From the NCBI GenBank assembly GCA_965116595.1, contig OZ220708.1, forward strand, positions 1,590,875-1,654,874: a DNA stretch of 64,000 bases, read 5' to 3'. The notes beneath the pieces are model-generated. The model worked only from the letters and a program-made list of their open reading frames with translations. It made no database searches and had not been told where the DNA came from. Shown here piece after piece: positions 39,757 to 61,206 of this stretch. The translations under genes and the position numbers were made by a program. The DNA is from Arenicellales bacterium (lineage in GTDB: Bacteria > Pseudomonadota > Gammaproteobacteria > Arenicellales > Poriferihabitantaceae). The stretch's first letter is position 1. Each line of letters starts with the position of its first letter.

Positions 39757-39771
39757 GTCGCAAGGTTTCCA

Positions 39772-39850: not shown

Positions 39851-39854
39851 TCGG

Positions 39855-39926
39855 CAGTCAATCATTTCCGGCAGATTCCTGACACCCCGATCTGGTCTTG
39901 AAATTGATACTTATCTATCAATATCT
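39855..39926. repeat. Repeat B, copy 1 (72 bp)
   Basis: CAGTCAATCATTTCCGGCAGATTCCTGACACCCCGA...TATCAATATCT matches 42064-42135 with few mismatches. Confidence 0.9.
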
Positions 39927-40574: not shown

Positions 40575-40600
40575 GCCTGACCCTCCCCGTGGGTGTCTCC

Positions 40601-40685
40601 AGATGAATGATATTGTTACCGGATTGTATTATTTGCGGGAATGCGAGTAAACCGGACATAAGTCCACCGCCTGTCATTATACTGT
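40601..40685. repeat. Repeat A, copy 2
   Basis: Homologous to 39772-39850; TATAAT hexamer on minus strand near 40675-40680. Confidence 0.85.
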
Positions 40686-40706
40686 GTGACTGGTTCAAGG
40701 GAACGA

Positions 40707-41804
40707 TTAGTTGTCTGGAAATGCTGGAAATGCTGGAAATGCTTTCAGCAAACTGTCCGCTATTTGGGTCATCTGTGTGACGGCGTCATCTATGACCCTG
40801 TCTCGTTCGACGCCGGTCTTGAGGCGGATGGGGATATACAGCCATCTGTCGTTAGGATCAGGCTCCTTCACATTATCCAAGAGTCTGCATATCTCCTTAG
40901 AATGGCCGGCAATGCCAGAGAGCTGCTCATTGCAATCAACGTGCCACCACAACGGTGTGATTCCGTTAGCGCGCCATACTTTCAGGTCAACCCCGAACCA
41001 TGATTCAAATTTCCCGAGCACACGTAAATTGCGGCCAGCGGTGTAATATGAGTTAGAAGCGCGTCCCTCCGTATCGGCGATTTTCTCGTTCTTCAGCTTC
41101 ACTGTAATGTCGTAAACCAGGTCGACGTAGTTGATCTGGCGACGTGCTATGCCCTGATCGGTAACCTCATCGGCACGAAGTGGCAGAAATGCTTCTGTAT
41201 CCATCTGGTTCGTCAGCCCCTGCAGTTGGAGGATGTCCCGTCTGATGGCGTCGTATCCGCCGGAATGGGCAGCGTCCAGCAATCCTTTCAGGACGTATTT
41301 CCAGCTCGTGATCAGCATGGTCTTACCGTCAACTTCGGCCCAAATTACGGAGCCATTGTCGGCGCCATCCTTCTGTTCGAGTTTTGCTTCGTCGCATCGC
41401 GCCTTGAGCTCGTTCCAGACCGTATGGATTCTCTGTTCCGGAACGATGAACACGAGGGCAGACGGAGGTTTTTCTACCTTGAGATATGATACAGGTTGCG
41501 CTTCGGTCAGCCCGGCCCAGAATTTGTTCTCGATGAAGATATAACTATCACTGTCACTGTCATAGATCGTCAAGTCTGGACGACTATCTCCATGTCCAAG
41601 CTCTGCCTGGATGCGTACTGGCTTGAACTCCTCGAACTTGCTATTTGCATTACGCAGCATGCCGAGGAACGAATCGGCAATATACGTAGACGATTTCAGT
41701 ATGAAGGCGAGTGCCTGTGTTGCCGCAGGTTTGCTCGAAAGCGAGCCACCAAGAACGACATGCGCCAGTACGCTATTCGGGGGTGTTGTAGCAGTATTTG
41801 ACAT
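40707..41804 (-). CDS. PD-(D/E)XK nuclease-domain protein
   Basis: RPDLTI...IFIENKFWAGLTEAQP.SY. Confidence 0.8.
   Translation of the reverse strand: MSNTATTPPNSVLAHVVLGGSLSSKPAATQALAFILKSSTYIADSFLGMLRNANSKFEEFKPVRIQAELGHGDSRPDLTIYDSDSDSYIFIENKFWAGLTEAQPVSYLKVEKPPSALVFIVPEQRIHTVWNELKARCDEAKLEQKDGADNGSVIWAEVDGKTMLITSWKYVLKGLLDAAHSGGYDAIRRDILQLQGLTNQMDTEAFLPLRADEVTDQGIARRQINYVDLVYDITVKLKNEKIADTEGRASNSYYTAGRNLRVLGKFESWFGVDLKVWRANGITPLWWHVDCNEQLSGIAGHSKEICRLLDNVKEPDPNDRWLYIPIRLKTGVERDRVIDDAVTQMTQIADSLLKAFPAFPAFPDN
40715..40743. repeat. 9-bp tandem repeat x3
   Basis: (CTGGAAATG)3, giving the protein terminus AFPAFPAFPDN. Confidence 0.9.
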
Positions 41805-41889
41805 GTCGAGGCCTCCAAATGAATAATACTATTATTACTGGATTAAGGATACAGATGATTGTATCGGTTCAGGGTGGCTTCTGGGTGTT

Positions 41890-41962
41890 GTAGGGGCGGG
41901 TCTCCGTGCCCGCCCGTTCCGGGCTCAGTCAATAACGGGCGACCACAGAGGGTCGCCCCTAC
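41890..41962. repeat. GTAG-type REP doublet (REPIN-like)
   Basis: GTAGGGGCGGGTCTCCGTGCCCGCCC ... GGGCGACCACAGAGGGTCGCCCCTAC in inverted orientation. Confidence 0.8.
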
Positions 41963-42063
41963 GTCATTTATTACAGACCCTGCCATCAAACCGCCCGTCA
42001 CCAGATAACCATCGCCTGACAGCGTCTTCTACGACCTCGTCCCGTTCAACGCTGGTCTTGAGA

Positions 42064-44148: not shown

Positions 44149-44448
44149 TTGTCGGATCCGGTTTATCCAATGAGTTCGCAGCAACATGAGAAGCTGATCG
44201 AAATTTTTAAGGGCATGATTTCGATGGAGGAGGGCGGGCGGCAGTGGCAGTTTACGCTGCCGGAGTTGTATGAATTCTGTTGCCAGTCAAACAGTGAAAT
44301 AATTGAACTTGGATATCCGGGGTTCAGAAAACTGTTGTATCAACATCCGACCAACCGGAGAATCGCCGACAGCGGCGGCCAATTCGTGGTGGTCGAGAAC
44401 AAGGGGCATATCGACCGGAATATCTATGCCTTGACCGTCAGTGGTTGA
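44149..44448 (+). CDS. Hypothetical protein
   Basis: Clean 99-aa ORF co-oriented with the porin gene; no recognised motif. Confidence 0.55.
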   Translation: MSDPVYPMSSQQHEKLIEIFKGMISMEEGGRQWQFTLPELYEFCCQSNSEIIELGYPGFRKLLYQHPTNRRIADSGGQFVVVENKGHIDRNIYALTVSG

Positions 44449-45384: not shown

Positions 45385-46371
45385 TCAGCGTAGAAAGGAG
45401 GCGGGGAGCACGGAAATTTTGCTGTCAACAGATTTGCGGGGCGATGTTGTCTTCCTCTTGTGCGTTTGCGGGTGCCAATTCGTAGCCAACTCTATAAATG
45501 CTGCACAAGCCGGGTTGATATAGCCGTATCGGTGCCAGATCAGGCTGACGGCGTGTTGCGGCAAATTGACCTCCAGTTTTATTGAATGCAGATTACTCCG
45601 ATTATCGATAATGCTCTTCGGCAGGATGGTAGCAAGCCTGCCGGACTCGACAAGTTCGAGAATGACACTGACCGAGTTGGTTTCGATCGCGATCTGCGGG
45701 GTGAGCGAATGCTTTTTGCAGTATTCATCGATGTGCTGGCGCAGGGCAAAGTCCCGGTTGAGCAACACCATTGAAAGCGGGGAGTCAGATTGCGGCGTCT
45801 TGCCCTGGGCAAACTTCGCAAGTGGATGTTTGTCGCCGACGGCGAGGAACAGCGACTCGTTGAACATGATTCGGGTTTCGAATTCCTGGACACGCACATT
45901 ATTTGCATCGGGTTGGGTGAACGCAATGCCGATGTCGATCGTGTCTTCAGTAACGGACTGTTCGAGGAATTCCTGAGACATTTCGAAGGTCGACAGGATA
46001 ATTCCGGGATGCTGATGGTGGAAGCTGTCGATCAGGTCATAAGTCAGGTGATCGGTTATCGGCGTCCAACCAACCCTTAACGTACCCCGGCTCAAATCAC
46101 GGACATCATTGACCGCACGTGCACCTGCGATCATCTCGGCACGCGCACGCTTGGCGAACCCATGAAAGATTTCACCTGCATCGGTCAGCCGCACGGTACG
46201 CCCGGGTCGGATTAGCAGTCGGGTCTGGAGCAAACCCTCCAGTTGCTTGATCTGTTGCGATAGCGAGGGCTGGGAAACGTGCAGGACCTCCGCTGCCCGG
46301 GAGAAACTGCCATATTCAACGATGGTAAGGAAATACTCCAATGCCCTCGGAAATATGATTTTTCGGTACAT
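45385..46371 (-). CDS. LysR-family regulator, CynR-like
   Basis: GSFSRAAEVLHVSQPSLSQQIKQLE; divergent from scnBAC. Confidence 0.9.
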   Translation of the reverse strand: MYRKIIFPRALEYFLTIVEYGSFSRAAEVLHVSQPSLSQQIKQLEGLLQTRLLIRPGRTVRLTDAGEIFHGFAKRARAEMIAGARAVNDVRDLSRGTLRVGWTPITDHLTYDLIDSFHHQHPGIILSTFEMSQEFLEQSVTEDTIDIGIAFTQPDANNVRVQEFETRIMFNESLFLAVGDKHPLAKFAQGKTPQSDSPLSMVLLNRDFALRQHIDEYCKKHSLTPQIAIETNSVSVILELVESGRLATILPKSIIDNRSNLHSIKLEVNLPQHAVSLIWHRYGYINPACAAFIELATNWHPQTHKRKTTSPRKSVDSKISVLPASFLR

Positions 46372-46510
46372 AGTGGTGCTGTTTTTCCCAGCCTGCCCCG
46401 GACATTCGGATGGTGACGGAGATTCAGGCTGGTAAATTATCTGAATTTTCTATAATATATGGCAATAATATCATTATTTCCAATAATCCACCACGTCAGG
46501 GTTTCATACG

Positions 46511-46542
46511 AGGATATAATTATATCCTATAGACCCGATAGG
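46511..46542. promoter_or_regulatory. Overlapping palindromes, candidate LysR box
   Basis: Perfect 18-bp AGGATATAATTATATCCT (46511-46528) and CCTAT-N7-ATAGG (46526-46542, fits T-N11-A). Confidence 0.6.
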
Positions 46543-46695
46543 AAAATATGACTTGATTATTGCATGGTCTTTAGGGTAGCTTTCTACTAAGAGTTTTATT
46601 TTCGACAGCGATGTTTCCGCCGGAGTGAGAACAACAAAAAGAAGGATTCATCGCCGGGCACACGAACCAGTACTTATTGAGGAGATTTTCCAGAC

Positions 46696-47127
46696 ATGCC
46701 TTCATCCACCCGAGATAGAATCATGCGGCATCTGGATATTGTCAAACAATTCCAGCCTGCCCTGCATGGCGAAACCCACGCTCCCTCTCCCGATATGGTT
46801 GATGACGACCACTATCGCGCCTACACGCGCTCGTCACATGACGTCGGTGGTGAACCGGATATCCCGATTCCCTGGGAAGAGAAGGAAGAGGAGATCTGGG
46901 AACACAATACTTTTGTCACTTGCGAGGTGCTGGCCTGGCGGGGTGTCTGGAATGCCGAGGAGCGGCGGCGGCGTCAAAATGTTGACGTCGGCCAGACGAT
47001 TTACCTCGGCTTGCCGTACTACGGCCGCTGGCTGATGACTGCGGCCCTGATCCTGGTCGACAAGCAATACGCTACCCTGAGCGAGCTTCAGGACAAGATT
47101 CACGAAGTGAGGCAACGTTATGAGTAA
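46696..47127 (+). CDS. scnB: Thiocyanate hydrolase beta subunit
   Basis: HDVGGE, EKEEEIWE.NTF.TCE.LAWRGVW.AEERRR.QN.DVGQT.YLG.PYYGRW, as recalled for Thiobacillus ScnB. Confidence 0.92.
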   Translation: MPSSTRDRIMRHLDIVKQFQPALHGETHAPSPDMVDDDHYRAYTRSSHDVGGEPDIPIPWEEKEEEIWEHNTFVTCEVLAWRGVWNAEERRRRQNVDVGQTIYLGLPYYGRWLMTAALILVDKQYATLSELQDKIHEVRQRYE

Positions 47128-47491
47128 TAAACCTGTTTACGATCGCGAACATCACGTCAAGAAAGCCACGGGGATCGGCGATCCCCAGTGTTTTGCCGGG
47201 GAAGCTGCGCCGGCCAGGTTCAAGGTGGGAGACCAGGTTCGGGTCCGTGACCTGCCTGATCTGTTCTATACCCGGACGCAAACCTACTTGCGAGGAACGG
47301 AGTGCACCGTTTCTGCGCTTGTCTATGAAAGCCCGGCCGCCGAAGACGAGGCCTGGGATAATACCGACAAGGCCGAATGGTTTTACAGCCTCGTCTTCAA
47401 GCAGAGCGATCTTTGGTCCGATTATCCGAAGACCTTTGGCGGCGATACGCTGGAGACTGAATTACCGGAGCGTTGGCTGGAGTCGGCCTAG
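47120..47491 (+). CDS. scnA: Thiocyanate hydrolase alpha subunit
   Basis: ATGIGDPQCF, F.VGD.VR..DLPDLFYTRT, YESPAAEDEA, DTLETE.PER.LE. Confidence 0.92.
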   Translation: MSNKPVYDREHHVKKATGIGDPQCFAGEAAPARFKVGDQVRVRDLPDLFYTRTQTYLRGTECTVSALVYESPAAEDEAWDNTDKAEWFYSLVFKQSDLWSDYPKTFGGDTLETELPERWLESA

Positions 47492-47552
47492 AGCCTGCAC
47501 CGGAACTCACACTTGCACGAATTGACGAAATAACTGTTGAGAGGAAAGATAA

Positions 47553-48248
47553 ATGTCTGACGATCACAAGCATGCGCCGATGGTTGATGAAGTAAGCGAA
47601 TTCGAAATTCTGGAAATCGCGGTTCGCGAACTTGCCATTGAAAAGGGCCTGTTTACCCAAGAGGATCACAATGCCTGGACCGAGTATATGCATACCCTCG
47701 GGCCGCTGCCGGCGGCACGCCTTGTGGCCAAGGCCTGGCTGGATCCTGAATTCAAAAAACTCGCGGTAGAGGATGGCGTCAAGGCCAGCCTTGAAGTCGG
47801 GATCGATTGGATCAAGACTATGCCGACACAGTTCGGTACCCCAAGTGACTATTGCAGTTTCCGCGTCATGGAAGATACGCCGACCCTGAAGCATGTCGTA
47901 GTCTGCACTTTGTGCTCATGCTATCCGCGCCCGATACTGGGCCAGTCTCCCGAGTGGTATCGTACGCCGAATTATCGTCGGCGCCTTGTACGCTGGCCCC
48001 GGCAGGTGTTATCGGAGTTCGGTTTGCAGTTATCGGAAGACGTGGAAGTCCGGGTGGTTGACTCCAATCAGAAATCCCGCTTCACCGTGCTGCCGGTTCG
48101 TCCGGAAGGGACTGAGGGCTGGACCGAGGATCAATTAACCGAAATCGTCACGCGTGATTGCCTGATCGGAGTAGCCTTGCCGAAACCGGGCAAGACCGCG
48201 AACGATCCTCGTCCGATCCGCAAGGCGCTGAAACCCTACAACCACTAG
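47553..48248 (+). CDS. scnC: Thiocyanate hydrolase gamma subunit (Co-binding)
   Basis: VCTLCSCYPRP: Co-type Cys motif with Arg where nitrile hydratases have Trp (YPWP). Confidence 0.95.
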   Translation: MSDDHKHAPMVDEVSEFEILEIAVRELAIEKGLFTQEDHNAWTEYMHTLGPLPAARLVAKAWLDPEFKKLAVEDGVKASLEVGIDWIKTMPTQFGTPSDYCSFRVMEDTPTLKHVVVCTLCSCYPRPILGQSPEWYRTPNYRRRLVRWPRQVLSEFGLQLSEDVEVRVVDSNQKSRFTVLPVRPEGTEGWTEDQLTEIVTRDCLIGVALPKPGKTANDPRPIRKALKPYNH

Positions 48249-48266
48249 ACAACGCGTGATGCCGAC

Positions 48267-48674
48267 ATGACCTTGATCAATCCCGAAAAGATTGCGCTTG
48301 ACGAGGAAATGCAGGCGCGCGATCTTGAAAACTCGCCGATCGACTTGCTGGAAGAGATCAGGCGGGATGGTAGTCATTGGGAAGACCTGGCATCGAAATG
48401 GGGAGTGGACAACCCGGACCCGCCCTGGAAAATATGGCTGGAAGCCACGTGCGAAGTCCTGGCAGATAAAAATTGTGCATTGCCAGCGCTGGAACGCCGG
48501 TGGGAGGAAGACGATCTCAGCGAGGAGCTGTACAAAGATGTTCCTTTTCCGGAACGGCAATTGTTGGCCCTGGCACATTCGATGATTCGACGCGGGTTGA
48601 TCGACGAGAAGGAACTGGCGACGCACAAAAAGGTTGTAGAAAAGCGACTGCACATGGTGGACCAGATAACTTAA
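48267..48674 (+). CDS. SCNase activator/metallochaperone (P15K-like)
   Basis: NHase-beta-like tail (PFPERQLLALAHSMIRRGLIDE.EL), about 15 kDa, directly after scnC. Confidence 0.75.
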   Translation: MTLINPEKIALDEEMQARDLENSPIDLLEEIRRDGSHWEDLASKWGVDNPDPPWKIWLEATCEVLADKNCALPALERRWEEDDLSEELYKDVPFPERQLLALAHSMIRRGLIDEKELATHKKVVEKRLHMVDQIT

Positions 48675-48707
48675 GAGGTTGCACCTAAATATTACGTTGA
48701 TCGAAAT

Positions 48708-49613
48708 TTGAATATTTCCGCAAGCGCCAGTGGTATCCACATCAGTGTCGAAGATCTCTCGCATCGATACACGCATAAATCGCCTTTTACATTCGAAAAG
48801 GTCAGCTTCAAGGCGGAACCGGGCGAAGCCCTGACCATAATCGGCCGGTCCGGATGTGGCAAGTCAACGCTGCTTCAGGTTATCGCGGGATTGTTGCCTT
48901 ATTCCATAGGCAAGGTTCAACTTGAGAATGAAGATGTCGTTGAACCCTCCTCGCGGTGGGTCATGATGTTTCAGGCTCCCCATTTGTTTCCCTGGATGAA
49001 CGTTCGTCAAAACGTCGGCGTGGGCCTGCGTTTTGCGAACTGGCCGAAGGAACGGATTACGGATCGTGTCGATGAGGCGCTTGAACTCGTCCACCTGGAA
49101 GAGTTTGCCAACAAGAACACTCAGGATCTGTCGGGCGGTCAGCAACAGCGTGTTGCGCTGGCGCGATCACTGGTCATGGAACCGGAGATGCTGCTCCTGG
49201 ATGAGCCTTTCTCGGCGCTGGATGCCTTCACCCGCGCCAGTCTCCAGCATGATGTACGCCAGATCGCCAAGCAACTGTGTATCAATGTTGTCCTGGTTAC
49301 ACACGATATCGACGAAGCCATCCTGATGGCTGACCGCGCCTTGGTGATGGCAGGTTCTCCGGGCAAGATCGTACATGATTTCAAGGTGGATCTCCCGGAC
49401 CCGCGTGAGCGCCGCGATCCGAAAGTGCAGGAAATGCGTACCAGGCTGATGGGGGTTTTCCACGATGCTACGCATGAGCAGGGCGAGGATGAAGGTGATT
49501 TACCGATAGTAGACGATGAACCGATAGTAACCGACTCGACAAAACTTGAGTTTTCGGGCCGCGAGTTTAGTCGGTCTAACTGGACCGAGGTGGCATCCGG
49601 CCGCCCAATTTGA
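48708..49613 (+). CDS. NitT/TauT-family ABC ATP-binding protein
   Basis: GRSGCGKST, LSGGQQQR, LLLDEPFSALD, THDIDEA. Confidence 0.95.
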   Translation: MNISASASGIHISVEDLSHRYTHKSPFTFEKVSFKAEPGEALTIIGRSGCGKSTLLQVIAGLLPYSIGKVQLENEDVVEPSSRWVMMFQAPHLFPWMNVRQNVGVGLRFANWPKERITDRVDEALELVHLEEFANKNTQDLSGGQQQRVALARSLVMEPEMLLLDEPFSALDAFTRASLQHDVRQIAKQLCINVVLVTHDIDEAILMADRALVMAGSPGKIVHDFKVDLPDPRERRDPKVQEMRTRLMGVFHDATHEQGEDEGDLPIVDDEPIVTDSTKLEFSGREFSRSNWTEVASGRPI

Positions 49614-49631
49614 CACTGTGGAGGAATCAGA

Positions 49632-50924
49632 ATGACTGATATGAAAAAAATGTACACGAAGCACGGTGATGGTATTCAAGATCCAAATCTCGTAATCGAG
49701 TGTGACCCCAACTTCAAGGGTATCCTTGGGTCGTCGGTCAATCGACGCGAACTGCTGCAACTGGGTGCTGCCGCAACTGCGGCCGGATTTACCTTACCAT
49801 CCTCTAGCCTGGCGCAGCAGACCAACTGGGATCCGGTGGTCAAGATCGGATACATTCCAATCACGGACTCGGCCGCGTTACTGGTTGCCCATGAATTGGG
49901 ATACCTGAAAGAAGAGGGTATCGATTCGGTCAGGCCGACGCTTATTCGAGGGTGGTCTCCGCTGGTAGAAGCCTTCGCCTCCTACCGCTTTAACCTGACT
50001 CACATGTTGATCCCGATTCCGATCTGGATGAGGTACAACAACAATTACCCAGTCAAAATCACCGCCTGGGACCACACCAACGGTTCTGCAATCGTGGTGG
50101 GCAAGAATACCGGTATCAACTCGCCGGCCGATTTCGGCGGCAAGCAGTTTGCAATGCCATACTGGTACTCGATCCACAACATTGTATCGCAACGTCTGTT
50201 ACGTGATGCCGGGATTACGCCAGTCATTCGTCCGCAGGATGCTGAATTGGGGCCGAATGAGTGTAACTTTCTTGTGCTGCCGCCGCCGTCAATGCCGCCG
50301 GCACTGGCTGCCGGCACGATTGACGGCTACTGCGTAGCCGAACCCTTCAACGCCCTGGGTGAACTCAAGGCAGGAGGCAAGGTGCTTCGGTTCACCGGTG
50401 ACGTCTGGAAAGGCCACCCATGCTGTGTGGTCGTCATGCACGAAGAGAACACGATGGATCCAGACCGGGCGGCATGGGCGCAGGGTATCCACAATGCCGT
50501 GGTGAGGGCACAGATCACGTTGGCCGAAAATCGTGAGGAAATGGCCGTGATGTTGTCACGTGACGGTCAGAAGTACCTGCCATTCCCGAAGGAGGTGATT
50601 GAGCGCGCCATGCTGTTCTACGATCCCGCCTACTACAACAATCCGCTTGCAATCAAGCATCCGGAGTGGGGTATGGACCGGATCAACTTCCAGGCCTGGC
50701 CGTATCGCTCGGCGACCGAACTTGTGGTCGATGATCTGAAGCAGACTCTCGTTACCGGTGATGATGCATTTCTGGCTGGCCTGACACCAAAAATGGTGGC
50801 CGACGATCTGGTCAATTACGAGTTCATCAAGAATTCACTCGAAGCCAACCCGAAATGGCGTAACGATGTGAGTGTTCCGAAAGGGGATGATCCCTATACG
50901 CGGACGGAAGTGGTTGAACTGTAG
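49632..50924 (+). CDS. NrtA/CynA-like ABC substrate-binding protein (Tat)
   Basis: NRRELLQ Tat motif, IGYIPITD, NGSAI, VAEPFN, W.GHPCC. Confidence 0.9.
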   Translation: MTDMKKMYTKHGDGIQDPNLVIECDPNFKGILGSSVNRRELLQLGAAATAAGFTLPSSSLAQQTNWDPVVKIGYIPITDSAALLVAHELGYLKEEGIDSVRPTLIRGWSPLVEAFASYRFNLTHMLIPIPIWMRYNNNYPVKITAWDHTNGSAIVVGKNTGINSPADFGGKQFAMPYWYSIHNIVSQRLLRDAGITPVIRPQDAELGPNECNFLVLPPPSMPPALAAGTIDGYCVAEPFNALGELKAGGKVLRFTGDVWKGHPCCVVVMHEENTMDPDRAAWAQGIHNAVVRAQITLAENREEMAVMLSRDGQKYLPFPKEVIERAMLFYDPAYYNNPLAIKHPEWGMDRINFQAWPYRSATELVVDDLKQTLVTGDDAFLAGLTPKMVADDLVNYEFIKNSLEANPKWRNDVSVPKGDDPYTRTEVVEL

Positions 50925-50964
50925 GCGCTGTCAGATCGCGTACATATAGATCCTGAATCTGGAT

Positions 50965-51777
50965 GTGACCATGGATCCAAGCCAGCCTAAGTTCTGGATC
51001 AAAAAGTACGGCCTCAAGTTATTTAACTGGGTGGCCGGACTTCTGATCCTGTTTTCGCTCTGGTGGTTGGGCGGTTTCCTGATCCATCTGAATCCCGACA
51101 CAACCCATTTTTCGGACTTCGGGCCAATCCCGACCCTCCAGGCTTTCCCCGAGCTCTGGGGAGATGGAACGATACTGGATGCAGTCATGTCCAGTGGCTA
51201 TCGGCTCGGTATCGGGTTGTTGATCGCCATCGCCTGCGGCATTCCGATCGGGATTCTAATGGGTCGCAGTCGTACGTTTCGTGAACTGAGTAATTCGCCA
51301 TTTCAGTTGCTGCGTATGATCAGCCCGCTGTCCTGGGAGCCGATTGCTGTTATCGTTTTCGTGACCTGGAACCAGGCGATCATATTCCTGATTGCGGTGG
51401 CCTCAGTCTGGCCGGTTGCCTTCGCAACAGCGGCAGGCCTGGCGAAGGTGGATCCGGCCTGGTTCAAAGTTGCCAGAAACCTCGGCGCCAGTCCCTGGCA
51501 CCGCCTGACGCTGATCATCATTCCGGCGATCACGTTCGATATGTTGACGGGAATCCGCGCTGCCCTCGGCGTCGCCTGGATCGTTCTGGTTCCGGCTGAG
51601 TTTCTCGGCGTAACTTCAGGTCTGGGCTATTCGATCGCGGATGCGCGTGAAACGCTGTCCTACGACTATCTGACCGCGATGGTATTAACAATCGGTTGCA
51701 TCGGCTACATTCTGGACAGTTCCTGTGTGCTGGCAATCAAGCGGTTCAGTTGGCACAGGGGTGATGAATCATCCTGA
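50965..51777 (+). CDS. NitT/TauT-family ABC permease
   Basis: PIGILMG, LR.ISPLSW.P, VARNLGAS, W..LVPAE.LG..SGLGY. Confidence 0.93.
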   Translation: MTMDPSQPKFWIKKYGLKLFNWVAGLLILFSLWWLGGFLIHLNPDTTHFSDFGPIPTLQAFPELWGDGTILDAVMSSGYRLGIGLLIAIACGIPIGILMGRSRTFRELSNSPFQLLRMISPLSWEPIAVIVFVTWNQAIIFLIAVASVWPVAFATAAGLAKVDPAWFKVARNLGASPWHRLTLIIIPAITFDMLTGIRAALGVAWIVLVPAEFLGVTSGLGYSIADARETLSYDYLTAMVLTIGCIGYILDSSCVLAIKRFSWHRGDESS

Positions 51778-51838
51778 CCCGACTTCAATGTTTTTTAATA
51801 ATCTAATCATATAACGAGTTAAATAGGAGAGAAGTAAA

Positions 51839-52024
51839 ATGAGTACTTTAGCAACGACATCGGCAATTAGCGTACCCACTATCGGCACTCGCGTGCTGAG
51901 TCAGCTGGTAGCTGCATTAATTCTGGGTTCAGTCATTCTCTATGGGGCGGGATTTGCGAATATGGGAGTCGCGCATAGTGCTGCCCATGACGCCCGTCAT
52001 TCACAGGGCTTCCCTTGCCATTAG
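51839..52024 (+). CDS. cbtB: Cobalt transporter subunit CbtB
   Basis: Single TM then HSAAHDARHSQGFPCH. Confidence 0.92.
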   Translation: MSTLATTSAISVPTIGTRVLSQLVAALILGSVILYGAGFANMGVAHSAAHDARHSQGFPCH

Positions 52025-52049
52025 TAGTCGCTGATTCCAGGTTTGTGCT

Positions 52050-52811
52050 GTGGTATTTCGGAAAGTCGTCTACTATTCGATTCTGGTTGGGATCGTAGCC
52101 GGCCTCGTCCTGACCGCGGCCCAACGTTTGCAGGTTGTGCCGATCATCTTTACTGCGGAGGTATACGAAAGTACGTCGATAGACACCGGATCAGGTGGGG
52201 CTGACGACCACGCACACTGGTCGCCGGAGGCAGGCATGCGGACTGTGTTAACCGCGTTTTCCAACGTGCTGACAGCTATTGGATACGCACTGATACTGCT
52301 GTCCGTGATGCTGGCTGTACAAACCTGGTCCCCAGGCAAGCCAAACCGACTTACCTGGCAGAGGGCGCTTGGTTGGAGCCTGGCAGGATATGCCATATTC
52401 TGGTTAGTGCCATCACTTGGTTTGCCACCGGAAATTCCTCTGCAAAATGCCGCCGAACTGCAAGATCGTCAGGTCTGGTGGGTAATCTGTGTCGTCTGTA
52501 CGGCTGCCGGGCTTGGTGGACTTGCTTTCGCGTCGACACCCTGGCGATGGCTGGCGCCACTGGTCATCGCGGTCCCTTACCTGATCGGCGCACCGCATCC
52601 GGAAGGTCCGATGTTTATTGGCCAGACCCCGGAATTCGCAGGGGCACTTGAGGCGCTTGCTGCTGAATTTTTCTATGCCACGGCCATCGTGAATGCCGTG
52701 TTCTGGCTGGTTCTTGGTTCGCTGGTTACCTGGTCCGGTGTCCGGATCAGCCGGAGTATGGCAACAGCGGACAAGGATTCTTCCAAACCCGCTACCACAA
52801 CCTCGGCTTAA
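52050..52811 (+). CDS. cbtA: Cobalt transporter subunit CbtA
   Basis: P.I..AEVYE, PSLGLPPEIP, RQVWW, GAPHP. Confidence 0.92.
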   Translation: MVFRKVVYYSILVGIVAGLVLTAAQRLQVVPIIFTAEVYESTSIDTGSGGADDHAHWSPEAGMRTVLTAFSNVLTAIGYALILLSVMLAVQTWSPGKPNRLTWQRALGWSLAGYAIFWLVPSLGLPPEIPLQNAAELQDRQVWWVICVVCTAAGLGGLAFASTPWRWLAPLVIAVPYLIGAPHPEGPMFIGQTPEFAGALEALAAEFFYATAIVNAVFWLVLGSLVTWSGVRISRSMATADKDSSKPATTTSA

Positions 52812-52825
52812 CTCAAGGAGTCAAA

Positions 52826-53218
52826 GTGACCAATAAGATCAGTATCATCTGTTTGTCGGGTGAACACGAAAAGCTGCAAATGGCGGCCATGGTGGCCTCG
52901 GTTGGAGCTGCATCAGGAGATGAAGTCACGGTTTTCTTTTCTATGAACTCGATGAAGTACTTTATCAAGGGCAATGAGGACACTGTCCCGGCCGAGGGTG
53001 AATTCGGCGCTACTGCCCTGAATCGTGAGGGTGTGCCCCCCTTTCGGGATTTGTTCCAACAGGCAGTAGAGCTTGGTGATGCGGCCTTGCTTCCCTGTTC
53101 GATGGCGATGGACCTGCTGGAATTGAAGGATGGTGATCTGATGAACGAGTTCGGACCGTCTACCGGGTTGACCAAATTCTTGAGCGATGCAGAGGGATCG
53201 CAAATTATAACTTTTTAA
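52826..53218 (+). CDS. DsrE/DsrF-like (DsrE2/E3-type) sulfur carrier
   Basis: V.VFFSM, PCSMAMDL conserved Cys. Confidence 0.82.
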   Translation: MTNKISIICLSGEHEKLQMAAMVASVGAASGDEVTVFFSMNSMKYFIKGNEDTVPAEGEFGATALNREGVPPFRDLFQQAVELGDAALLPCSMAMDLLELKDGDLMNEFGPSTGLTKFLSDAEGSQIITF

Positions 53219-53248
53219 TGGTAGAATTTCTGTGTAAGGAGGGATGAC

Positions 53249-53479
53249 ATGAGTGAGCATATCATCATTGATGCAAAGAACACCTATTGCCCGGGCCCAT
53301 TGATGGAGTTGATCCGGTGCGTGAAACAGGCGGAGGTCGGCGACGTACTCGAGTTGCTTTCGACCGACAGCGGCACTGCTAATGACGTTCCCGAGTGGGT
53401 CGCCAAGATCGGCCATGAAATTTTGAGCTCGGAGCAAATCGATGACGTCTGGCACGTCACGGTGAAAAAGGTCAAGTAA
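53249..53479 (+). CDS. TusA-family sulfurtransferase
   Basis: IDA...CPGP.M, LSTD.G..NDVP.W. Confidence 0.92.
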   Translation: MSEHIIIDAKNTYCPGPLMELIRCVKQAEVGDVLELLSTDSGTANDVPEWVAKIGHEILSSEQIDDVWHVTVKKVK

Positions 53480-53520
53480 CGCCCGTTCCAGGTCGCTGCG
53501 CTGAAATACGGAAGGTTGAA

Positions 53521-54654
53521 ATGAAAATTCTGGTAGTGGGTGGCGGTACCGGTGGTACGATCACCGCCAACAATGTGGCCCGACGCCTGGCGTCGGAAAT
53601 AAGTGCAGGCAAGGCGGGTATCACGATGCTGTCCGCATCCGACCGCCACATGTATCAACCCGGCTTGCTGTACGTTGCTTTCGGGCAGATGATGCCTGAT
53701 GAACTGTATCGCGATCAGGCGAGCCTGCTTGAAAGTTCCATAGACTTTCATGTCGATCCGGCTGAAGATTTTGATCTTGACAATAACCGGGTGACGACGC
53801 AGAGCGGCCAGGTTCATGACTACGACGTACTTGTTATCGCAACCGGTTCGCGCATCATGCCGAAGATCATTCCCGGCCTCAACGAGGGCGCCGAAACCTT
53901 TTATACCGAGGAAGGGGCGATCAAGATGTTCAAGGCCCTGCGGGAATTTGAGGGCGGCAAGGTTGCTACCATCGTCGGTGTACCTCACAAGTGTCCTATT
54001 GCACCGGTGGAGGTAACTTTTTCGCTGCACGATTATTTCAAGTCCCGCGGCATTCGCGACAAGGTCGAAATCAAGTACCATTATCCGATCAACCGGATTC
54101 ACAGTATCGAAAATGTGGCTGCCTGGGCGGAGCCCGAGTTTCGACGCATGGGTGTCGAGTACGAAACCCTTTTCAATGTCGAGGAAGTCGACGTAGAAAA
54201 CAAGATTGTCAAGAGCCTCGAAGGTACCGAATATCAGTACGATCTGCTGATTTCGATTCCCGAACATAACGGGGTTGAAGCCATTATCAACAGCGACCTG
54301 GGGCAGGACGGCTGGATACCGACTGATCGGCACAAGCTGACGATGACGGGCTATGACAATGTCTATGTCGTGGGCGACACCACCGATCTGCCGGTCAGCA
54401 AGACAGGGTCAGCAGCTCACTTTCAGGCTGAAGTCATTGCAGAGAATATTGCCTCGATGATCAAGATAGGCACACCGGTCACAGAGTACAACGGCAAGGT
54501 GTACTGCTTTATAGAAGCCGGTTACGATAAGGCAACCTACGCAATGTTCAACTATGACTTCCCGCCCGATTTGAAAGAACCGAACAAATCCATGCACTGG
54601 TTCAAGGTCAGTTATAACAAGATGTACTGGACCAGTGTTCGCGGGCTACTGTAA
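53521..54654 (+). CDS. Sulfide:quinone oxidoreductase-like flavoprotein (short type)
   Basis: VVGGGTGG, KCPIAP, VGD...P.SK.G..AH, YCF; the two Cys lie at SQR-like positions. Confidence 0.8.
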   Translation: MKILVVGGGTGGTITANNVARRLASEISAGKAGITMLSASDRHMYQPGLLYVAFGQMMPDELYRDQASLLESSIDFHVDPAEDFDLDNNRVTTQSGQVHDYDVLVIATGSRIMPKIIPGLNEGAETFYTEEGAIKMFKALREFEGGKVATIVGVPHKCPIAPVEVTFSLHDYFKSRGIRDKVEIKYHYPINRIHSIENVAAWAEPEFRRMGVEYETLFNVEEVDVENKIVKSLEGTEYQYDLLISIPEHNGVEAIINSDLGQDGWIPTDRHKLTMTGYDNVYVVGDTTDLPVSKTGSAAHFQAEVIAENIASMIKIGTPVTEYNGKVYCFIEAGYDKATYAMFNYDFPPDLKEPNKSMHWFKVSYNKMYWTSVRGLL

Positions 54655-54665
54655 GGCAGACATCA

Positions 54666-55070
54666 ATGACCTCTGGACCAGAAAACGAAAACAGCAACAG
54701 CCTGGAAAAAAGTCTTGAAGGGTTGACCGAGATCGGTACCGTCATCGCTGCAGCCAAGGATGCGCTTAACGACGACATGGTTGCCAGAATGTCTTCGGCG
54801 TTTTCCGAGGGCGTCATGTTGCTTGATCGCCTGACCCGGAACCAGGCCCTCGTCCGGTTGCTGCAAAATCTTGATCGGCCGGAGAATCAGGCATTGCTGA
54901 ATAGCCTTTCGGATGCGCTTGGCAAGACCAGTATCGAGATGTCTTCTTCGTCGCCGGCAAAGGGAGGGTTCGGTAACCTGGTCAAGCAATTGAACGACCC
55001 GGATACGCAGGAAGGTCTGCGTATACTCGCCATGTTTGGTAAGCACCTGGGGGCGGGTATACGTAAATAA
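54666..55070 (+). CDS. DUF1641-family protein
   Basis: Helical; GGFGNLVKQLNDPDTQEGL motif; usual SQR neighbour. Confidence 0.75.
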   Translation: MTSGPENENSNSLEKSLEGLTEIGTVIAAAKDALNDDMVARMSSAFSEGVMLLDRLTRNQALVRLLQNLDRPENQALLNSLSDALGKTSIEMSSSSPAKGGFGNLVKQLNDPDTQEGLRILAMFGKHLGAGIRK

Positions 55071-56573: not shown

Positions 56574-57401
56574 TTGATGATCAGTGTAGACCCCCATTGC
56601 CGATCCCATTCGCTGGATGACGAAACCTCCGGGCGCCTGATCAGCCGGCTGGAAAGCCGTGCGCAGGATGACGTGTTCACCCGACTGTTCGACCGCTATG
56701 CCGACACCCTGGAATTTTCCGACGATACACTCACGCTGGAGGTGGGGTGCGGAACCGGGGCCATGATTCGCTCGCTGGTAAACAAACCGAATTTCCGCGG
56801 CCGCATTGTCGGTGTCGATCAGAGTCCGGCTTTCATCGATGCAGCGTCCGGCTTCGCCGAAAATGCCGGTATCACGGATCGGGTCGAATTTCATGTCGGC
56901 GACGCGCATAATCTTGATAGTGAAGACGGAAAATTCGATCTGGTCATCGCCCATACTGTGATCAGCCATGTTGTTGATCCGCAATCGGTTGTCAACGAGT
57001 GCGCCCGAGCCTTACGTCCTGGAGGAATGCTTGTTGTTTTCGATGGTGACTACTCGTCGCTGACCTACGGGTTTCCTGACGATCCGGAACTGGGACGGCG
57101 TATGGATCGTGCACTTGCCGAAACCACCTTCCACAATCCTTTGGTAATGCGGGATCTGATCAAGCTGTTGCCCGAAAGTTGTTTTGACATCGAAGATACC
57201 CTTGCCGAGGTCGTTTCGGAAATTGGGGAGGCCAGCTACTTCAAGTCCTTTGCCGACACTTACGCGCCCATGGTGGCGAGTGGTGACATGATGGACGCCG
57301 GTGAGGTGGAGCGTTGGGTCAATGGGCAGGCCGAACTGATTGCCAGCCGACAGTTTTTTGCCTCATGCAACTACTACACCTATCGGTCACGGCGCGTCTG
57401 A
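56574..57401 (+). CDS. Class I SAM methyltransferase (UbiE-like)
   Basis: LEVGCGTG, GVDQS, VGDAH, LRPGG. Confidence 0.9.
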   Translation: MMISVDPHCRSHSLDDETSGRLISRLESRAQDDVFTRLFDRYADTLEFSDDTLTLEVGCGTGAMIRSLVNKPNFRGRIVGVDQSPAFIDAASGFAENAGITDRVEFHVGDAHNLDSEDGKFDLVIAHTVISHVVDPQSVVNECARALRPGGMLVVFDGDYSSLTYGFPDDPELGRRMDRALAETTFHNPLVMRDLIKLLPESCFDIEDTLAEVVSEIGEASYFKSFADTYAPMVASGDMMDAGEVERWVNGQAELIASRQFFASCNYYTYRSRRV

Positions 57402-57880: not shown

Positions 57881-59071
57881 TTAACTCTTACCTGCCTGGT
57901 TGTATTGATCAAGGTCCTTTTTTGAAAGTCCTGGCAGGCAAATATCAGCGTAAGACGTAAGATGATCGAAAAACTCATGGAAATCCATCGTCACGTTCGA
58001 TTCATTGCCTTCGGACAGGAAGCTGTCAGCCAGTCGTTGGCGTAACTTGTCGCTTATTCCGTCAAAACCGATCTCCCTTGGAACATGTAAATGAACATCT
58101 GCACAGTGCGAACGGAAATCCTTGCTGACGCATGAAAAGTCATCCAGATGGTCAATCCACTGGCAGATGACATTACGCCATTTGCTCAAGGGTTCACCAG
58201 GCAGAACCTGTACACCGGGGTGGGTGAATTTCGCCAGATTGTAATAAATCCAGTTCCCACCTTCAGAGGCAGATGCCAGCACCCGGGATAGTGCGCCGCC
58301 GTCGTCGTGAACCGCAAGGCGCATGAACGCATCTTGCGTAAACTTGGTGGTCACCTCCTGGCGGATACGGTTACGCAAGTCTACTTCACCGGTATTCGTA
58401 TACGAGGTCAGGCGCTGCCATGAATGTTCGGTATTGGTTACAAAAAACCCGCCGTTGAATGGATTTGCATCGTCAGACAAGCCGTCGAGCTCGTCGAGGC
58501 TTTCGCGCAGAGTCGCCGGGACATCACCATCACCACTATGAGGCAACTGTCCGACACCGATGATCGTACCGTTGCCGTCAAGCTTGTCGTTTGCCAGGTG
58601 GGATGCAAGATCCACAGCCATGCCACTCCCGGTTCCACCCGCCAGATTGAAGCAAACCATAATCCTGGATGACAGTTCCGTTTGACCGATATGCCCGGCG
58701 AAATCTGTCAGGGCAGCGTTCAAAGCGCCTGCGTCATCATTGTAGTCGTCGTTGTAGATTTTCCTGGCTGCAGCACGGGAAAGATGCGACCCGGCTTCGG
58801 CTCCATCAAGCGAGACCGACTGGAAATGAAAATTCTCAGGTGGAATATCCAGTTCTTCGAGTCGTGTCTTCATGGCATCTGCATAGCCTATTGCACGATC
58901 CAGATCCGCGTCCCCCACATCCACCACAAGAGCGGCAACCCGTGCCCCTGGGTTCATTAGAATATCTTCGACTTCCCCGGTACGCAAAAGCCCGTCTACG
59001 TAACCGGCGCCGGAACGTCCAATACCCACAACATGCAGGCAATAAGGTGATTCATTAGCATTCGACATCAT
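57881..59071 (-). CDS. Tubulin/FtsZ-like GTPase-domain protein
   Basis: N-terminal VVGIGRSG, ALVVDVG, signature NLAGGTGSG; GGAGG RBS. Confidence 0.78.
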   Translation of the reverse strand: MMSNANESPYCLHVVGIGRSGAGYVDGLLRTGEVEDILMNPGARVAALVVDVGDADLDRAIGYADAMKTRLEELDIPPENFHFQSVSLDGAEAGSHLSRAAARKIYNDDYNDDAGALNAALTDFAGHIGQTELSSRIMVCFNLAGGTGSGMAVDLASHLANDKLDGNGTIIGVGQLPHSGDGDVPATLRESLDELDGLSDDANPFNGGFFVTNTEHSWQRLTSYTNTGEVDLRNRIRQEVTTKFTQDAFMRLAVHDDGGALSRVLASASEGGNWIYYNLAKFTHPGVQVLPGEPLSKWRNVICQWIDHLDDFSCVSKDFRSHCADVHLHVPREIGFDGISDKLRQRLADSFLSEGNESNVTMDFHEFFDHLTSYADICLPGLSKKDLDQYNQAGKS

Positions 59072-59352: not shown

Positions 59353-60522
59353 ATGCTTTTTGACAAGAAGGAAATAATTATGGGGTTAGTGAAAACCAGG
59401 ACATCCGCCCCTTGGCGGGTTGGTGTACTATTCTCTATAACGGGGAATACTGCGGTAATTGAGAAAACTCAATTAGCCGGGACTATGCTCGCTATTGAGG
59501 AAATCAATAACGCTGGGGGAATTCGTGGTCGTCCGCTTGAGCCGGTAGTCTACAATCCCATGTCGGATACGTCTGCTTTTGGTCGTTACGCCAAACAGTT
59601 GATGATCAAGGACGGCGTCAACACCATTTTCGGGTGTTATACCTCCAGTAGCCGGAAGTCTGTTTTACCGGTCGTAGAGCGACTCAATGGATTGTTGTGG
59701 TACCCTACGCTGTATGAAGGATTCGAGTTTTCCCCGAACATTGTTTACACCGGAGCGGCACCCAACCAGAACGTGACCGTGTTGTGCCACTATTTGATGA
59801 GGCGCTATGGAAGCCGTTTCTATTTTATCGGTTCTGACTACATATATCCCCGTGAGTTGAATCGCCTGATGAAGGAATTTCTTGGCCACAATGGTGGCTC
59901 GGTGGAGGGGGAGTCGTACTTGAGTCTCCGCGCCAGTCGGGGTGATTTCAATCCGATCATCAGTGAGATAAAAAAATGTCGACCCGACATAATTTTCTCA
60001 ACGGTGGTTGGAGAGACAACATCTTATCTGTATCAGGCCTATGCTGATTCCGGTCTCGACCCCAAGACCATGCCGATTGCAAGTCTGACCACGACAGAAA
60101 CAGAAATCCGGGATATGGGTTATGATGTCGGCGAGCATCATCTTACTGCTGCGAGTTATTTTCAAGGGATAAAGAGCGATACGAATTCTCAATTTATAAG
60201 AAAATACAAAGAACATTACGGCGAAGACGAGCCGACCAATGTTTGTGCGGAAGCCTCCTATTTTCAGGTGCATCTTTTTGCCAGGGCGCTGCATGAAGCT
60301 GGAACAATGGACACCGATGTCTTGAGAAAAATGGTTATGGAAACCGAATACACCGCACCCCAGGGAAAAGTCTCACTGGATTCGAGAAATGGTCACACAG
60401 CCCTGTGGTCAAGGATAGGACGCGCAAATCGTGAAGGTCAGTTTGATATTGTTTATGAATCATCAAAACAGGTTGCAGCAGATCCGTATCTGATTGGTTA
60501 TGGAAGGGTCGCTTCCGATTGA
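59353..60522 (+). CDS. AmiC-like cytoplasmic amide sensor (periplasmic-binding fold)
   Basis: FGCYTSSSRK, YPTLYEGFE, GSDYIYPRE; no signal peptide; start may be 59380. Confidence 0.85.
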   Translation: MLFDKKEIIMGLVKTRTSAPWRVGVLFSITGNTAVIEKTQLAGTMLAIEEINNAGGIRGRPLEPVVYNPMSDTSAFGRYAKQLMIKDGVNTIFGCYTSSSRKSVLPVVERLNGLLWYPTLYEGFEFSPNIVYTGAAPNQNVTVLCHYLMRRYGSRFYFIGSDYIYPRELNRLMKEFLGHNGGSVEGESYLSLRASRGDFNPIISEIKKCRPDIIFSTVVGETTSYLYQAYADSGLDPKTMPIASLTTTETEIRDMGYDVGEHHLTAASYFQGIKSDTNSQFIRKYKEHYGEDEPTNVCAEASYFQVHLFARALHEAGTMDTDVLRKMVMETEYTAPQGKVSLDSRNGHTALWSRIGRANREGQFDIVYESSKQVAADPYLIGYGRVASD

Positions 60523-60547
60523 TCATTAATCAAGGGATGCCAGCAGT

Positions 60548-61135: not shown

Positions 61136-61158
61136 TAATACACAGGCTGCAGTCATAA

Positions 61159-61193: not shown

Positions 61194-61206
61194 ATAAAAT
61201 TGAGCG

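Follow-up and report, generated by a model that had tools for sequence, protein, structure and literature searches.

Introduction

Thiocyanate hydrolase (SCNase, EC 3.5.5.8) converts thiocyanate (SCN-) into carbonyl sulfide (COS) and ammonia at a Co(III) centre that has cysteine-sulfinate and cysteine-sulfenate ligands. A larger gene cluster around this enzyme has been described for Thiobacillus thioparus DSM 505 and Thioalkalivibrio thiocyanodenitrificans ARhD1 (Berben et al., 2017, PMC5328954, Front Microbiol 8:254, Fig. 3). There, scnABC are followed by genes for a hypothetical protein, a NitT/TauT-type ATP-binding cassette (ABC) transporter, a DsrE/F-like protein, a TusA-related sulfurtransferase, a sulfide:quinone oxidoreductase (SQR) and a second hypothetical protein. 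In addition, a passage of Rahman et al. (2017, PMC5458468) cites Kantor 2015 for a conserved operon. Here we analyse a stretch of 64,000 nucleotides (the window) of an Arenicellales bacterium, positions 1,590,875 to 1,654,874 of contig OZ220708.1 (assembly GCA_965116595.1), in which 13 plus-strand genes (46696-55070 of the window) face away from a minus-strand gene for a CynR-like LysR regulator. Very probably these genes are a canonical cluster for thiocyanate utilisation by the COS pathway, of the kind first recognised in T. thioparus and here carried by an uncultured gammaproteobacterial sulfur oxidiser.

The original prediction for this DNA had raised the possibility that the gene combination is an undescribed architecture. 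This is ruled out by Berben et al. (2017, PMC5328954), who also propose the same roles for the cluster genes, and by the gene order counts given below: the cluster is a further copy of an already described, very widespread thiocyanate-utilisation cluster. The value of the finding lies instead in its breadth among marine symbiont-type lineages, in a COS step without an assigned enzyme, and in a hypothesis for the DUF1641 gene of the cluster.

A described cluster in a wide range of bacteria

Relatives were sought by a scan for ScnC in one genome per GTDB species, which gave at least 582 confirmed stretches. The best 80 of these, in which ScnC is at least 70% identical to that of the window, were compared; at least 80 species-level genomes therefore carry a ScnC of this similarity. 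Gene presence was scored by tblastn with all window proteins as queries, and neighbouring families were obtained by clustering all open reading frames (ORFs) of the 80 loci. Gene order was counted in the 64 loci with at least 8 kb of sequence 3' of scnC. We define the full core as 11 genes, namely scnBAC, the P15K-like gene, the three ABC genes, the DsrE-like gene, tusA, the SQR-like gene and the DUF1641 gene.

The gene arrangement is far beyond chance, with the same order found in dozens of unrelated genomes. The complete core is present in 44 of the 64 loci, and the four-gene run DsrE-TusA-SQR-DUF1641 (the sulfur module) follows the ABC genes in 47, across classes and with Thiobacillus, Halochromatium, Thiogranum, Thiodiazotropha and Sedimenticolaceae among its carriers. 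In T. thioparus DSM 505 (L035) all 11 core genes are collinear with those of the window, at 46-80% identity. The two genes for a probable cobalt transporter, cbtB and cbtA, also lie downstream in 14 of the 64 loci, with a complete core, and the exact window order permease-cbtB-cbtA-dsrE recurs in eight other loci: one each from Sedimenticolaceae, Acidiferrobacteraceae and Burkholderiales, two from Thiogranum, one from a metagenome-assembled genome (MAG) labelled Gemmatimonas, and two others. As for the gene content originally predicted, every named gene was found in its place; the number of co-oriented genes is 13 and not ten to twelve, the ABC transporter counting for three (Table 1).

Table 1. 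Features of the thiocyanate utilisation cluster and its divergent regulator, in window positions.
Feature	Position	Strand	Basis
LysR-family regulator, CynR-like, 328 aa	45385-46371	-	Pfam HTH_1 + LysR_substrate; NF008416
Putative LysR operator CCTAT-N7-ATAGG	46526-46542	.	T-N11-A dyad in the lysR-scnB intergenic region
scnB, beta subunit (= N-terminal half of nitrile hydratase beta)	46696-47127	+	Pfam NHase_beta_N
scnA, alpha subunit (= C-terminal half of nitrile hydratase beta)	47120-47491	+	Pfam NHase_beta_C
scnC, predicted catalytic, cobalt-binding gamma subunit	47553-48248	+	Pfam NHase_alpha; TIGR03887
P15K-like putative activator/metallochaperone of SCNase, 135 aa	48267-48674	+	Position, weak ScnB similarity
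ABC ATPase, NitT/TauT-type	48708-49613	+	Pfam ABC_tran
ABC periplasmic substrate-binding protein, candidate thiocyanate binder	49632-50924	+	Pfam NMT1_2
ABC permease	50965-51777	+	Pfam BPD_transp_1
cbtB, small subunit of probable cobalt transporter	51839-52024	+	Pfam CbtB, E 1.7e-17
cbtA, probable cobalt transporter	52050-52811	+	Pfam CbtA, E 1e-37
DsrE3-type putative sulfur carrier, 130 or 109 aa (start uncertain)	52826-53218	+	Pfam DrsE_2, DsrE
tusA-like sulfurtransferase	53249-53479	+	Pfam TusA, E 5.7e-19
SQR-family flavoprotein, type III-like, 377 aa	53521-54654	+	Pfam Pyr_redox_2
DUF1641 protein, probable SQR-like partner	54666-55070	+	Pfam DUF1641 (PF07849)

The cluster is modular, with a hydrolase-plus-uptake core to which a four-gene sulfur unit has been added in many of the sampled genomes. 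A group of MAGs whose names suggest sponge sources, although this is unconfirmed (L003-5, L059-67), has scnBAC, the P15K-like gene and the ABC genes without the sulfur module, and Actinomycetota (L073, L078-80) have scnBAC and the activator gene only. Some recurrent neighbours of scn in the 80 loci are absent from the window, namely genes for cyanase (cynS, 46 loci), a CbiM-type cobalt protein (21), a PhzF-family protein (22), a DUF1348 protein (18) and a GlcF-like Fe-S protein (26). One recurrent neighbour that is present encodes a Methyltransf_11 protein (56574-57401, plus strand). Its orthologues, about 50% identical, lie within 10 kb of scn in 39 of the 80 loci, including T. thioparus, and in Berben et al. 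(2017, PMC5328954) it appears as the "methylase"; its best NCBIfam matches (UbiG, ArsM-like, DVU1556 family) all fall far under their cut-offs.

A degraded variant of the cluster was seen on metagenome contigs (L083-L085) that carry P0113, a protein named "Chromatiaceae bacterium" by NCBI. Their gene order is scnC, a 57-aa ORF, permease, a transposase helix-turn-helix fragment and DsrE-TusA-SQR-DUF1641; this variant seems to have lost the genes for the activator, the ATPase and the binding protein, and yet its SQR-like protein occurs on 141 contigs.

Two ENA contigs carry exactly the ScnC sequence of the window and match the window over the cluster at about 97% identity. Next come two other species, one represented by a Gammaproteobacteria MAG and the other by a MAG labelled Ca. 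Poriferihabitaceae, an Arenicellales family reported from a sponge metagenome; they stand at about 85% identity in nucleotides and 96-97% in ScnC, and neither has cbtBA. The original prediction had placed SCNase mainly in Thiobacillus-type and halophilic sulfur oxidisers. The complete cluster is much more widely spread than that picture, its carriers including lucinid-clam symbionts (Ca. Thiodiazotropha), Ca. Poriferihabitaceae MAGs, Sedimenticolaceae and Halochromatium. In a lucinid Ca. Thiodiazotropha symbiont the scn genes have been noted and are transcribed (PMC11171427), and we found no publication on thiocyanate hydrolase in sponge symbionts. This spread suggests that thiocyanate is a more general marine source of nitrogen and sulfur than is usually assumed.

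The hydrolase and its activator

All three subunits align near full length with the crystallised SCNase of T. thioparus, to which they are 65-80% identical: ScnC with the gamma chain 2dd4_C (E 1.8e-126), ScnB with 2dd4_B (E 1.1e-62) and ScnA with 2dd4_A (E 7.1e-54). Residues 1-141 of ScnB are covered, and since the alignment begins at residue 1, the 143-aa start is favoured over the 134-aa gene call.

SCNase shares its superfamily (Pfam NHase_alpha and NHase_beta) and the CTLCSC cobalt motif with the cobalt nitrile hydratases, so that an enzyme acting on organic nitriles rather than on thiocyanate has to be weighed. Three kinds of evidence speak against it. ScnC passes the curated model for the gamma subunit of thiocyanate hydrolase (TIGR03887, 379.8 bits against a cut-off of 291.45) and fails the NCBIfam model for the nitrile hydratase alpha subunit (204 bits against 249.85); it is 80% identical to the T. 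thioparus gamma subunit, whereas nitrile hydratases match only at E values of about 1e-52. Moreover, NHase_beta_N, NHase_beta_C and NHase_alpha lie on three consecutive ORFs, meaning that the beta subunit is split in two, as in SCNase. Finally, the motif CTLCSCYPRP that had been noticed in ScnC is present at residues 118-127 and recurs in 77 of the 80 ScnC orthologues. The arginine after CSCYP corresponds to gamma-R136 of T. thioparus, as in wild-type SCNase; at this position the cobalt nitrile hydratases 1v29, 7qom and 7qop have tryptophan (CTLCSCYPWP), and so does PDB entry 3vyg. Taken together, the scores on the curated models, the divided beta subunit and the arginine in place of tryptophan rule out a nitrile hydratase for practical purposes, and we attach almost no probability to it. 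The COS-pathway assignment made in the original prediction is borne out, and by strong homology the enzyme is predicted to be a cobalt thiocyanate hydrolase producing COS and ammonia.

The 135-aa ORF directly downstream of scnC has no Pfam or NCBIfam match and is weakly similar to ScnB (2dd4_B, E 0.0024). An orthologue lies directly 3' of scnC in 63 of the 64 loci, and that of T. thioparus DSM 505 is 63% identical. The ORF fits the beta-like activator P15K and would act as P15K does in T. thioparus (Kataoka 2006, as cited in a passage of Rahman et al., 2017, PMC5458468).

Probable operon structure

The 13 genes are spaced by -8 to 61 nucleotides (nt), with scnA and scnB overlapping by 8 nt, and a 324-nt gap separates scnB from the divergent lysR gene; the tight spacing and the divergent CynR-like regulator had both been predicted, and both hold. 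Two more co-oriented ORFs follow the DUF1641 gene, a 165/189-aa ORF and then a glutathione S-transferase (GST) gene, with gaps of 37 and -4 nt; they are kept only in the closest relatives. Counts of signals within the unit were uninformative either way: terminator-like sites were not above the shuffled expectation (14 versus 12.1) and promoter-like sites did not exceed shuffled controls. No Rfam family reached its gathering threshold anywhere in the window, including before cbtBA, where a riboswitch was sought, and the window holds no tRNAs.

It could be argued that transcription starts anew at cbtB or dsrE, so that the genes beyond are neighbours of scn rather than members of one operon. The junction between permease and dsrE is indeed variable. 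The cbtBA segment (51832-52815) is an indel, present in the window and in its near-identical strains L081 and L082 and absent from the two nearest other species, L001 and L002, where both flanks remain about 85% identical in nucleotide sequence; in other loci cbtBA is inverted or upstream, or CbiM stands in its place. A weak promoter-like site (51774-51802) also lies just before cbtB. Nonetheless, the genes share a single strand with gaps of 14-61 nt and with no terminator-like hairpin plus T-run between them, and the dsrE-tusA-SQR-DUF1641 run follows the ABC genes across classes, as counted above. We therefore judge separate units to be unlikely.

Regulation

The LysR protein scores above the cut-off of the NCBIfam CynR equivalog NF008416 (315.2 versus 277), and in 45 of the 80 loci a LysR orthologue is transcribed divergently from scnB, no more than 1.2 kb away. 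The putative operator has the form of a T-N11-A type LysR box. Its inner dyad, CTAT-N7-ATAG, occurs a single time in the window, at this site; among relatives, 12 of the 48 lysR-scnB intergenic regions contain it, where shuffles gave an expectation of 0.33. The intergenic regions of most other relatives contain degenerate dyads (CCTATAGG...ATAA) near the lysR start. The regulator would bind CCTAT-N7-ATAGG and may respond to thiocyanate or a related pseudohalide.

A 99-aa ORF (44149-44448, plus strand) without a Pfam match belongs to a family whose members adjoin lysR or cynS in 24 scn loci, at about 30-40% identity.

Uptake genes

All three ABC genes are present in 58 of the 64 loci, directly after scnC and the P15K-like gene. 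The solved structures nearest to the binding protein are 3un6, the C-terminal domains of NrtC/CmpC, NrtA (2g29) and CmpA (2i48), and a twin-arginine-like NRRELLQ is found at residue 37. The protein thus fits a periplasmic binder of a small anion, and we infer SCN- to be its substrate. The permease is similar to the SaoP, TauC and NrtB permeases, and the best NCBIfam matches of the ATPase, among them the families for nitrate, taurine and sulfonate, do not reach their cut-offs.

Alternatively, the transporter may import another small anion, such as cyanate, nitrate or nitrite, bicarbonate or a sulfonate. The solved relatives nearest to the binding protein bind nitrate or bicarbonate, the best family matches are those for sulfonate, taurine and nitrate, and the regulator scores as CynR, the regulator of cyanate utilisation. 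On the other hand, no substrate-specific NCBIfam model reaches its cut-off, and the ABC genes keep their place behind scnC-P15K whether or not cynS is present; the window itself is without cynS. Another substrate is in our opinion improbable, and thiocyanate the better candidate.

Cobalt uptake is linked to the hydrolase genes through cbtBA; the loci with CbiM (21) have it instead.

The cluster sits in a region where mobile elements are active. In L082, a strain relative about 97% identical in nucleotide sequence, an insertion sequence of the DDE_Tnp_1 type (12362-13675) sits inside the binding-protein gene, at the equivalent of about window position 49809. L081 has an rve-type transposase between the GST region and the methyltransferase.

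The sulfur module

The uncharacterised half of the cluster consists of the four genes downstream of cbtA. The DsrE-like protein aligns from its residue 3 with 2qs7 (E 8e-10), an uncharacterised PDB chain that we take to be a Sulfolobus DsrE3-type protein, and its Cys91 (in PCSMAMD) falls on the CS motif of that chain. The cysteine motif PCSMA(M/L)D is kept in 48 of 52 DsrE-like orthologues, and the CPGP motif of TusA, with Cys14, in all 52 orthologues of that protein. Pairs of this kind act in sulfur transfer elsewhere, as in the DsrE3A/TusA relay of Metallosphaera cuprina and the Rhd-TusA-DsrE2 relay of Allochromatium vinosum.

The SQR-like protein has its best NCBIfam match with type III SQR (selenoprotein subtype; E 2.9e-96), at 322.8 bits and below the cut-off of 525. 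Among solved structures it is closest to human SQOR (E 6e-36) and Acidianus SQR. Two of its cysteines, Cys158 and Cys329, fall on those of the human SQOR motifs VKCAGAP and YTSCPL and are taken to be the catalytic pair; the first is conserved in all 54 orthologues and the second in 51 of them. The protein (377 aa) ends about 30 residues short of the human SQOR C-terminus in the alignment. It is unusually conserved: the best 120 matches listed are all at least 79% identical, and both of the two that were checked for context are scn-linked. Across the relatives it is 63-94% identical, compared with 72-97% for ScnC. An AlphaFold2 model was not used, its mean predicted local distance difference test score (pLDDT) being 56.5 and residues 315-377 lying below 50; the low score arises because the 22 sequences in hand were at least 79% identical.

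The DUF1641 gene begins 11 nt 3' of the SQR-like gene and is found in 54 of the 80 loci, always directly after it. The Pfam match (PF07849, 27.5 against a cut-off of 21) covers residues 96-129, in the C-terminal domain. A profile of 35 DUF1641 orthologues gave marginal matches, in the same region as the Pfam match, to the YjlC/Ncp chains 9snk_B (E 0.066) and 9pxk_E (E 0.15). The top PDB matches of this profile, designed armadillo-repeat proteins, are regarded as helical-repeat artefacts.

DUF1641 proteins have recently been given a function in other systems (PMC13524794, PMC8808070). HucM, ForE and Ncp/YjlC assemble into tetrameric hydrophobic tubes; these serve as a scaffold for a soluble oxidoreductase, attach to the membrane and bring quinone to the enzyme. 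The type II NADH dehydrogenase (NDH-2) coupled to Ncp is without the usual membrane-binding residues, and the NDH-2 tree in the same work is rooted with the SQR family as outgroup; the 684 genomes with Ndh-Ncp are all Bacillota. By analogy with Ndh-Ncp, ForCE and Huc-HucM, the SQR-like and DUF1641 proteins may form a quinone-conduit complex. Such an arrangement would agree with the use of the SQR family as outgroup to NDH-2, the shorter C-terminus and high conservation of the SQR-like protein, the scn linkage of the two matches checked and the marginal Ncp matches of the DUF1641 profile. We put this forward tentatively, and in the literature available to us we found no link between DUF1641 and SQR. 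If it holds, SQR would be the fourth enzyme class for the DUF1641 superfamily, and cytoplasmic sulfide from thiocyanate-derived COS would be oxidised away from the membrane, with sulfane sulfur passed straight to the DsrE3-like protein and TusA. Reading the pair through the DUF1641 quinone-conduit work of 2023-2026 in this way gives a concrete hypothesis for this half of the cluster.

Physiological role

From these assignments a pathway can be proposed. The CynR-like regulator would bind the CCTAT-N7-ATAGG dyad and switch the unit on in the presence of SCN- or a related pseudohalide. The NrtA/CmpA-family binding protein, with the permease and the ATPase, would import SCN-, as family and linkage suggest, while CbtBA, by its family-level annotation, would import Co2+ and the P15K-like protein, by homology, would mature the Co(III) centre of ScnC. 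ScnABC, with strong homology and all diagnostic motifs, would then convert SCN- to COS and NH3. COS would be turned into H2S and CO2 by an enzyme outside the cluster, and this is the gap in the model. The SQR-family flavoprotein, probably together with its DUF1641 partner, would oxidise H2S to sulfane sulfur and deliver the electrons to quinone; cysteines of the DsrE3-like protein and TusA, following the models from A. vinosum and M. cuprina, would carry the sulfane sulfur towards Dsr (reverse dissimilatory sulfite reductase), to which the dsrK'LJOPN genes 40 kb upstream belong. NH3 would be assimilated.

The Dsr genes at the left edge of the window (19-6273), about 40 kb from scn, consist of the 3' part of dsrK followed by dsrL-J-O-P-N. 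This K-L-J-O-P-N order fits the oxidative type, as in sulfur oxidisers such as A. vinosum. Support from individual matches differs: the partial dsrK gives 168 bits, DsrO 309 against a cut-off of 200, and DsrJ and DsrP match weakly; the dsrL position holds a DsrL-like NAD(P)-binding Fe-S flavoprotein and the dsrN position a CobB-type amidase. The original prediction of a reverse Dsr pathway encoded in the same window holds in part, for these genes; dsrAB, dsrEFH and dsrC are not in it. A much tighter link between thiocyanate and Dsr/Apr genes was seen in L086 (10728-19134), where aprBA-like genes directly adjoin an scn cluster that contains cbtB-cbtA-cbtB, with dsrAB-like and DsrE-family genes about 5 kb further on. 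As for the terminal oxidase, the window encodes an aa3-type cytochrome c oxidase (coxB-coxA-ctaG-coxC-SURF1, 13626-19054, minus strand) and, in the same region (13626-21951) and on the same strand, a heme O synthase; the oxidase cluster points to an aerobic respiratory chain.

Several observations weigh against the proposed pathway. The step from COS to H2S is locally unaccounted for: a regular expression for the beta-carbonic anhydrase/COS hydrolase signature C-x-D-x-R...H-x-x-C-G, which can miss divergent or non-beta forms, gave no match in the window or, up to 10 kb from scn, among 6091 ORFs from the 80 loci, and Pfam gave no carbonic anhydrase among most of the larger window ORFs. The gene for COS hydrolysis must then lie elsewhere, or else an as yet unrecognised factor performs this step. 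A bolder reading, prompted by the finding of no COS hydrolase in any of the 80 clusters, is that the four-gene sulfur module might itself take part in COS conversion. Additionally, the dsrAB, dsrEFH and dsrC genes lie outside the window, tblastn found no cynS in the window although 46 of the 80 related loci have it, and the nitrate, taurine and sulfonate family models all leave the ABC transporter under their cut-offs. The insertion sequence in the binding-protein gene of L082, finally, suggests that the transporter may be dispensable in some strains.

The cluster may serve mainly to scavenge nitrogen or to detoxify traces of thiocyanate, with the sulfur genes merely disposing of toxic cytoplasmic sulfide. 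The lineages without the sulfur module, including the Actinomycetota with scnBAC and P15K only, imply that the core works without coupling to sulfur energy; the cluster of the window adjoins a urea-uptake unit (AmiC/AmiR-like genes, urtA, urtB); and the lucinid-symbiont paper (PMC11171427) treats scn as an ammonium source. However, the sulfur module is kept in the majority of loci (47/64), its SQR-like protein is about as conserved as ScnC, and T. thioparus, with the same cluster, grows on SCN- as an energy source according to literature cited in a passage of Berben et al. (2017, PMC5328954). A role confined to nitrogen or detoxification is, to us, possible and rather doubtful. We consider the use of SCN- for both energy and nitrogen, as in the original prediction, to be plausible, and because of the adjacent urea-uptake unit and of the relatives without a sulfur module we take nitrogen acquisition to be a major role at the least.

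Genomic neighbourhood

The urea/amide uptake unit (59353-63635) follows closely on the scn region and encodes an AmiC-like sensor (UrtA-like, below the cut-off of TIGR03407), an AmiR/ANTAR antiterminator, a UrtA protein that carries a twin-arginine translocation (Tat) signal and scores 494.7 on TIGR03407 (cut-off 492.75), and a UrtB-like permease. Taken with scn, it gives this part of the window the look of a nitrogen-scavenging neighbourhood. In the interval that separates the scn region from the urea genes, a 396-aa protein (57881-59071, minus strand) has a marginal match to Tubulin_2 (PF13809, 29 bits against a cut-off of 27).

On the other side of the cluster, G+C content dips to 0.44 at 32-34 kb, and a toxin-antitoxin/defence-like patch extends over positions 32000-42000 with genes for RelE (33607-33963), an AAA_14/DUF4143 ATPase (37476-39161), HepT (39911-40366) and a weak PD-(D/E)XK match (40707-41804). 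Within it, the ORF at 34960-36327 has a Phd/YefM-like N-terminus fused in frame to a Rieske oxygenase. L081 has separate phd, parE and Rieske genes, and as the window lacks the L081 segment 813-1235, parE appears to have been deleted. The G+C-richest part of the window (0.60) holds a 795-aa ORF (27855-30242, minus strand) with only a faint DUF3604 match.

Comparison with known systems

The closest parallels to the SQR-like/DUF1641 pair are Huc-HucM, ForCE (with ForE) and Ndh-Ncp of Bacillus subtilis, in which a small DUF1641 protein is likewise encoded beside a redox enzyme that needs membrane quinone. The partner here belongs to the SQR family, in place of the hydrogenase, formate dehydrogenase or NDH-2 of those systems. 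The host is proteobacterial, unlike that of Ndh-Ncp, and the sequence similarity to Ncp is weak (E 0.07-0.15).

The sulfur relays of M. cuprina and A. vinosum resemble the DsrE3-like and TusA proteins in that a DrsE_2-family protein with one conserved cysteine is encoded beside a TusA with a CPxP motif. They differ in context, the pair of the window lying inside an scn cluster and beside an SQR homologue, not beside hdr or dsr genes. The regulatory arrangement is comparable to that of CynR and cynTSX in Escherichia coli, where a divergent LysR regulator of this type (here scoring above the CynR cut-off) stands next to an operon for pseudohalide degradation; in the window the adjacent operon is scn, and neither cyanase nor carbonic anhydrase was found there.

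Cobalt nitrile hydratases (Pseudonocardia thermophila 1IRE, Bacillus 1V29) share with the hydrolase the fold family, the CTLCSC metal motif, the expectation of post-translationally oxidised cysteines and an activator gene downstream. They have one beta gene and tryptophan where SCNase has arginine, and the window proteins remain below the nitrile hydratase equivalog cut-offs. The nearest described enzyme is instead SCNase of T. thioparus THI115 with P15K (2DD4, 2DD5, 2ZZD). It is likewise encoded in the order B-A-C with a beta subunit divided between two genes, and it has a Co-type CTLCSC motif continued by YPRP and a small beta-like activator gene directly downstream; the subunits of the window are 72-80% identical to the Scn proteins of T. 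thioparus DSM 505. Differences are minor in the protein (ScnB has 143 aa, compared with 157 aa in the PDB chain) and larger in the host, a betaproteobacterium there and here a marine-type gammaproteobacterium.

At the level of the whole cluster, that of DSM 505 and ARhD1 (Berben et al., 2017) differs from the window in having cynS and a CbiM-type cobalt gene, both absent here, and in the position of the conserved methyltransferase gene, which lies upstream there and downstream in the window. The LysR gene of Thiobacillus is about 4 kb away, whereas that of the window is directly divergent from scnB, and the window has the GST gene and the 165/189-aa ORF appended. What the clusters have in common is the order scnBAC, P15K, NitT/TauT ABC, DsrE-like, TusA, SQR and DUF1641 together with linked cobalt uptake, and the placement of cbtB-cbtA after the permease is shared with a Thioalkalivibrio MAG (L028).

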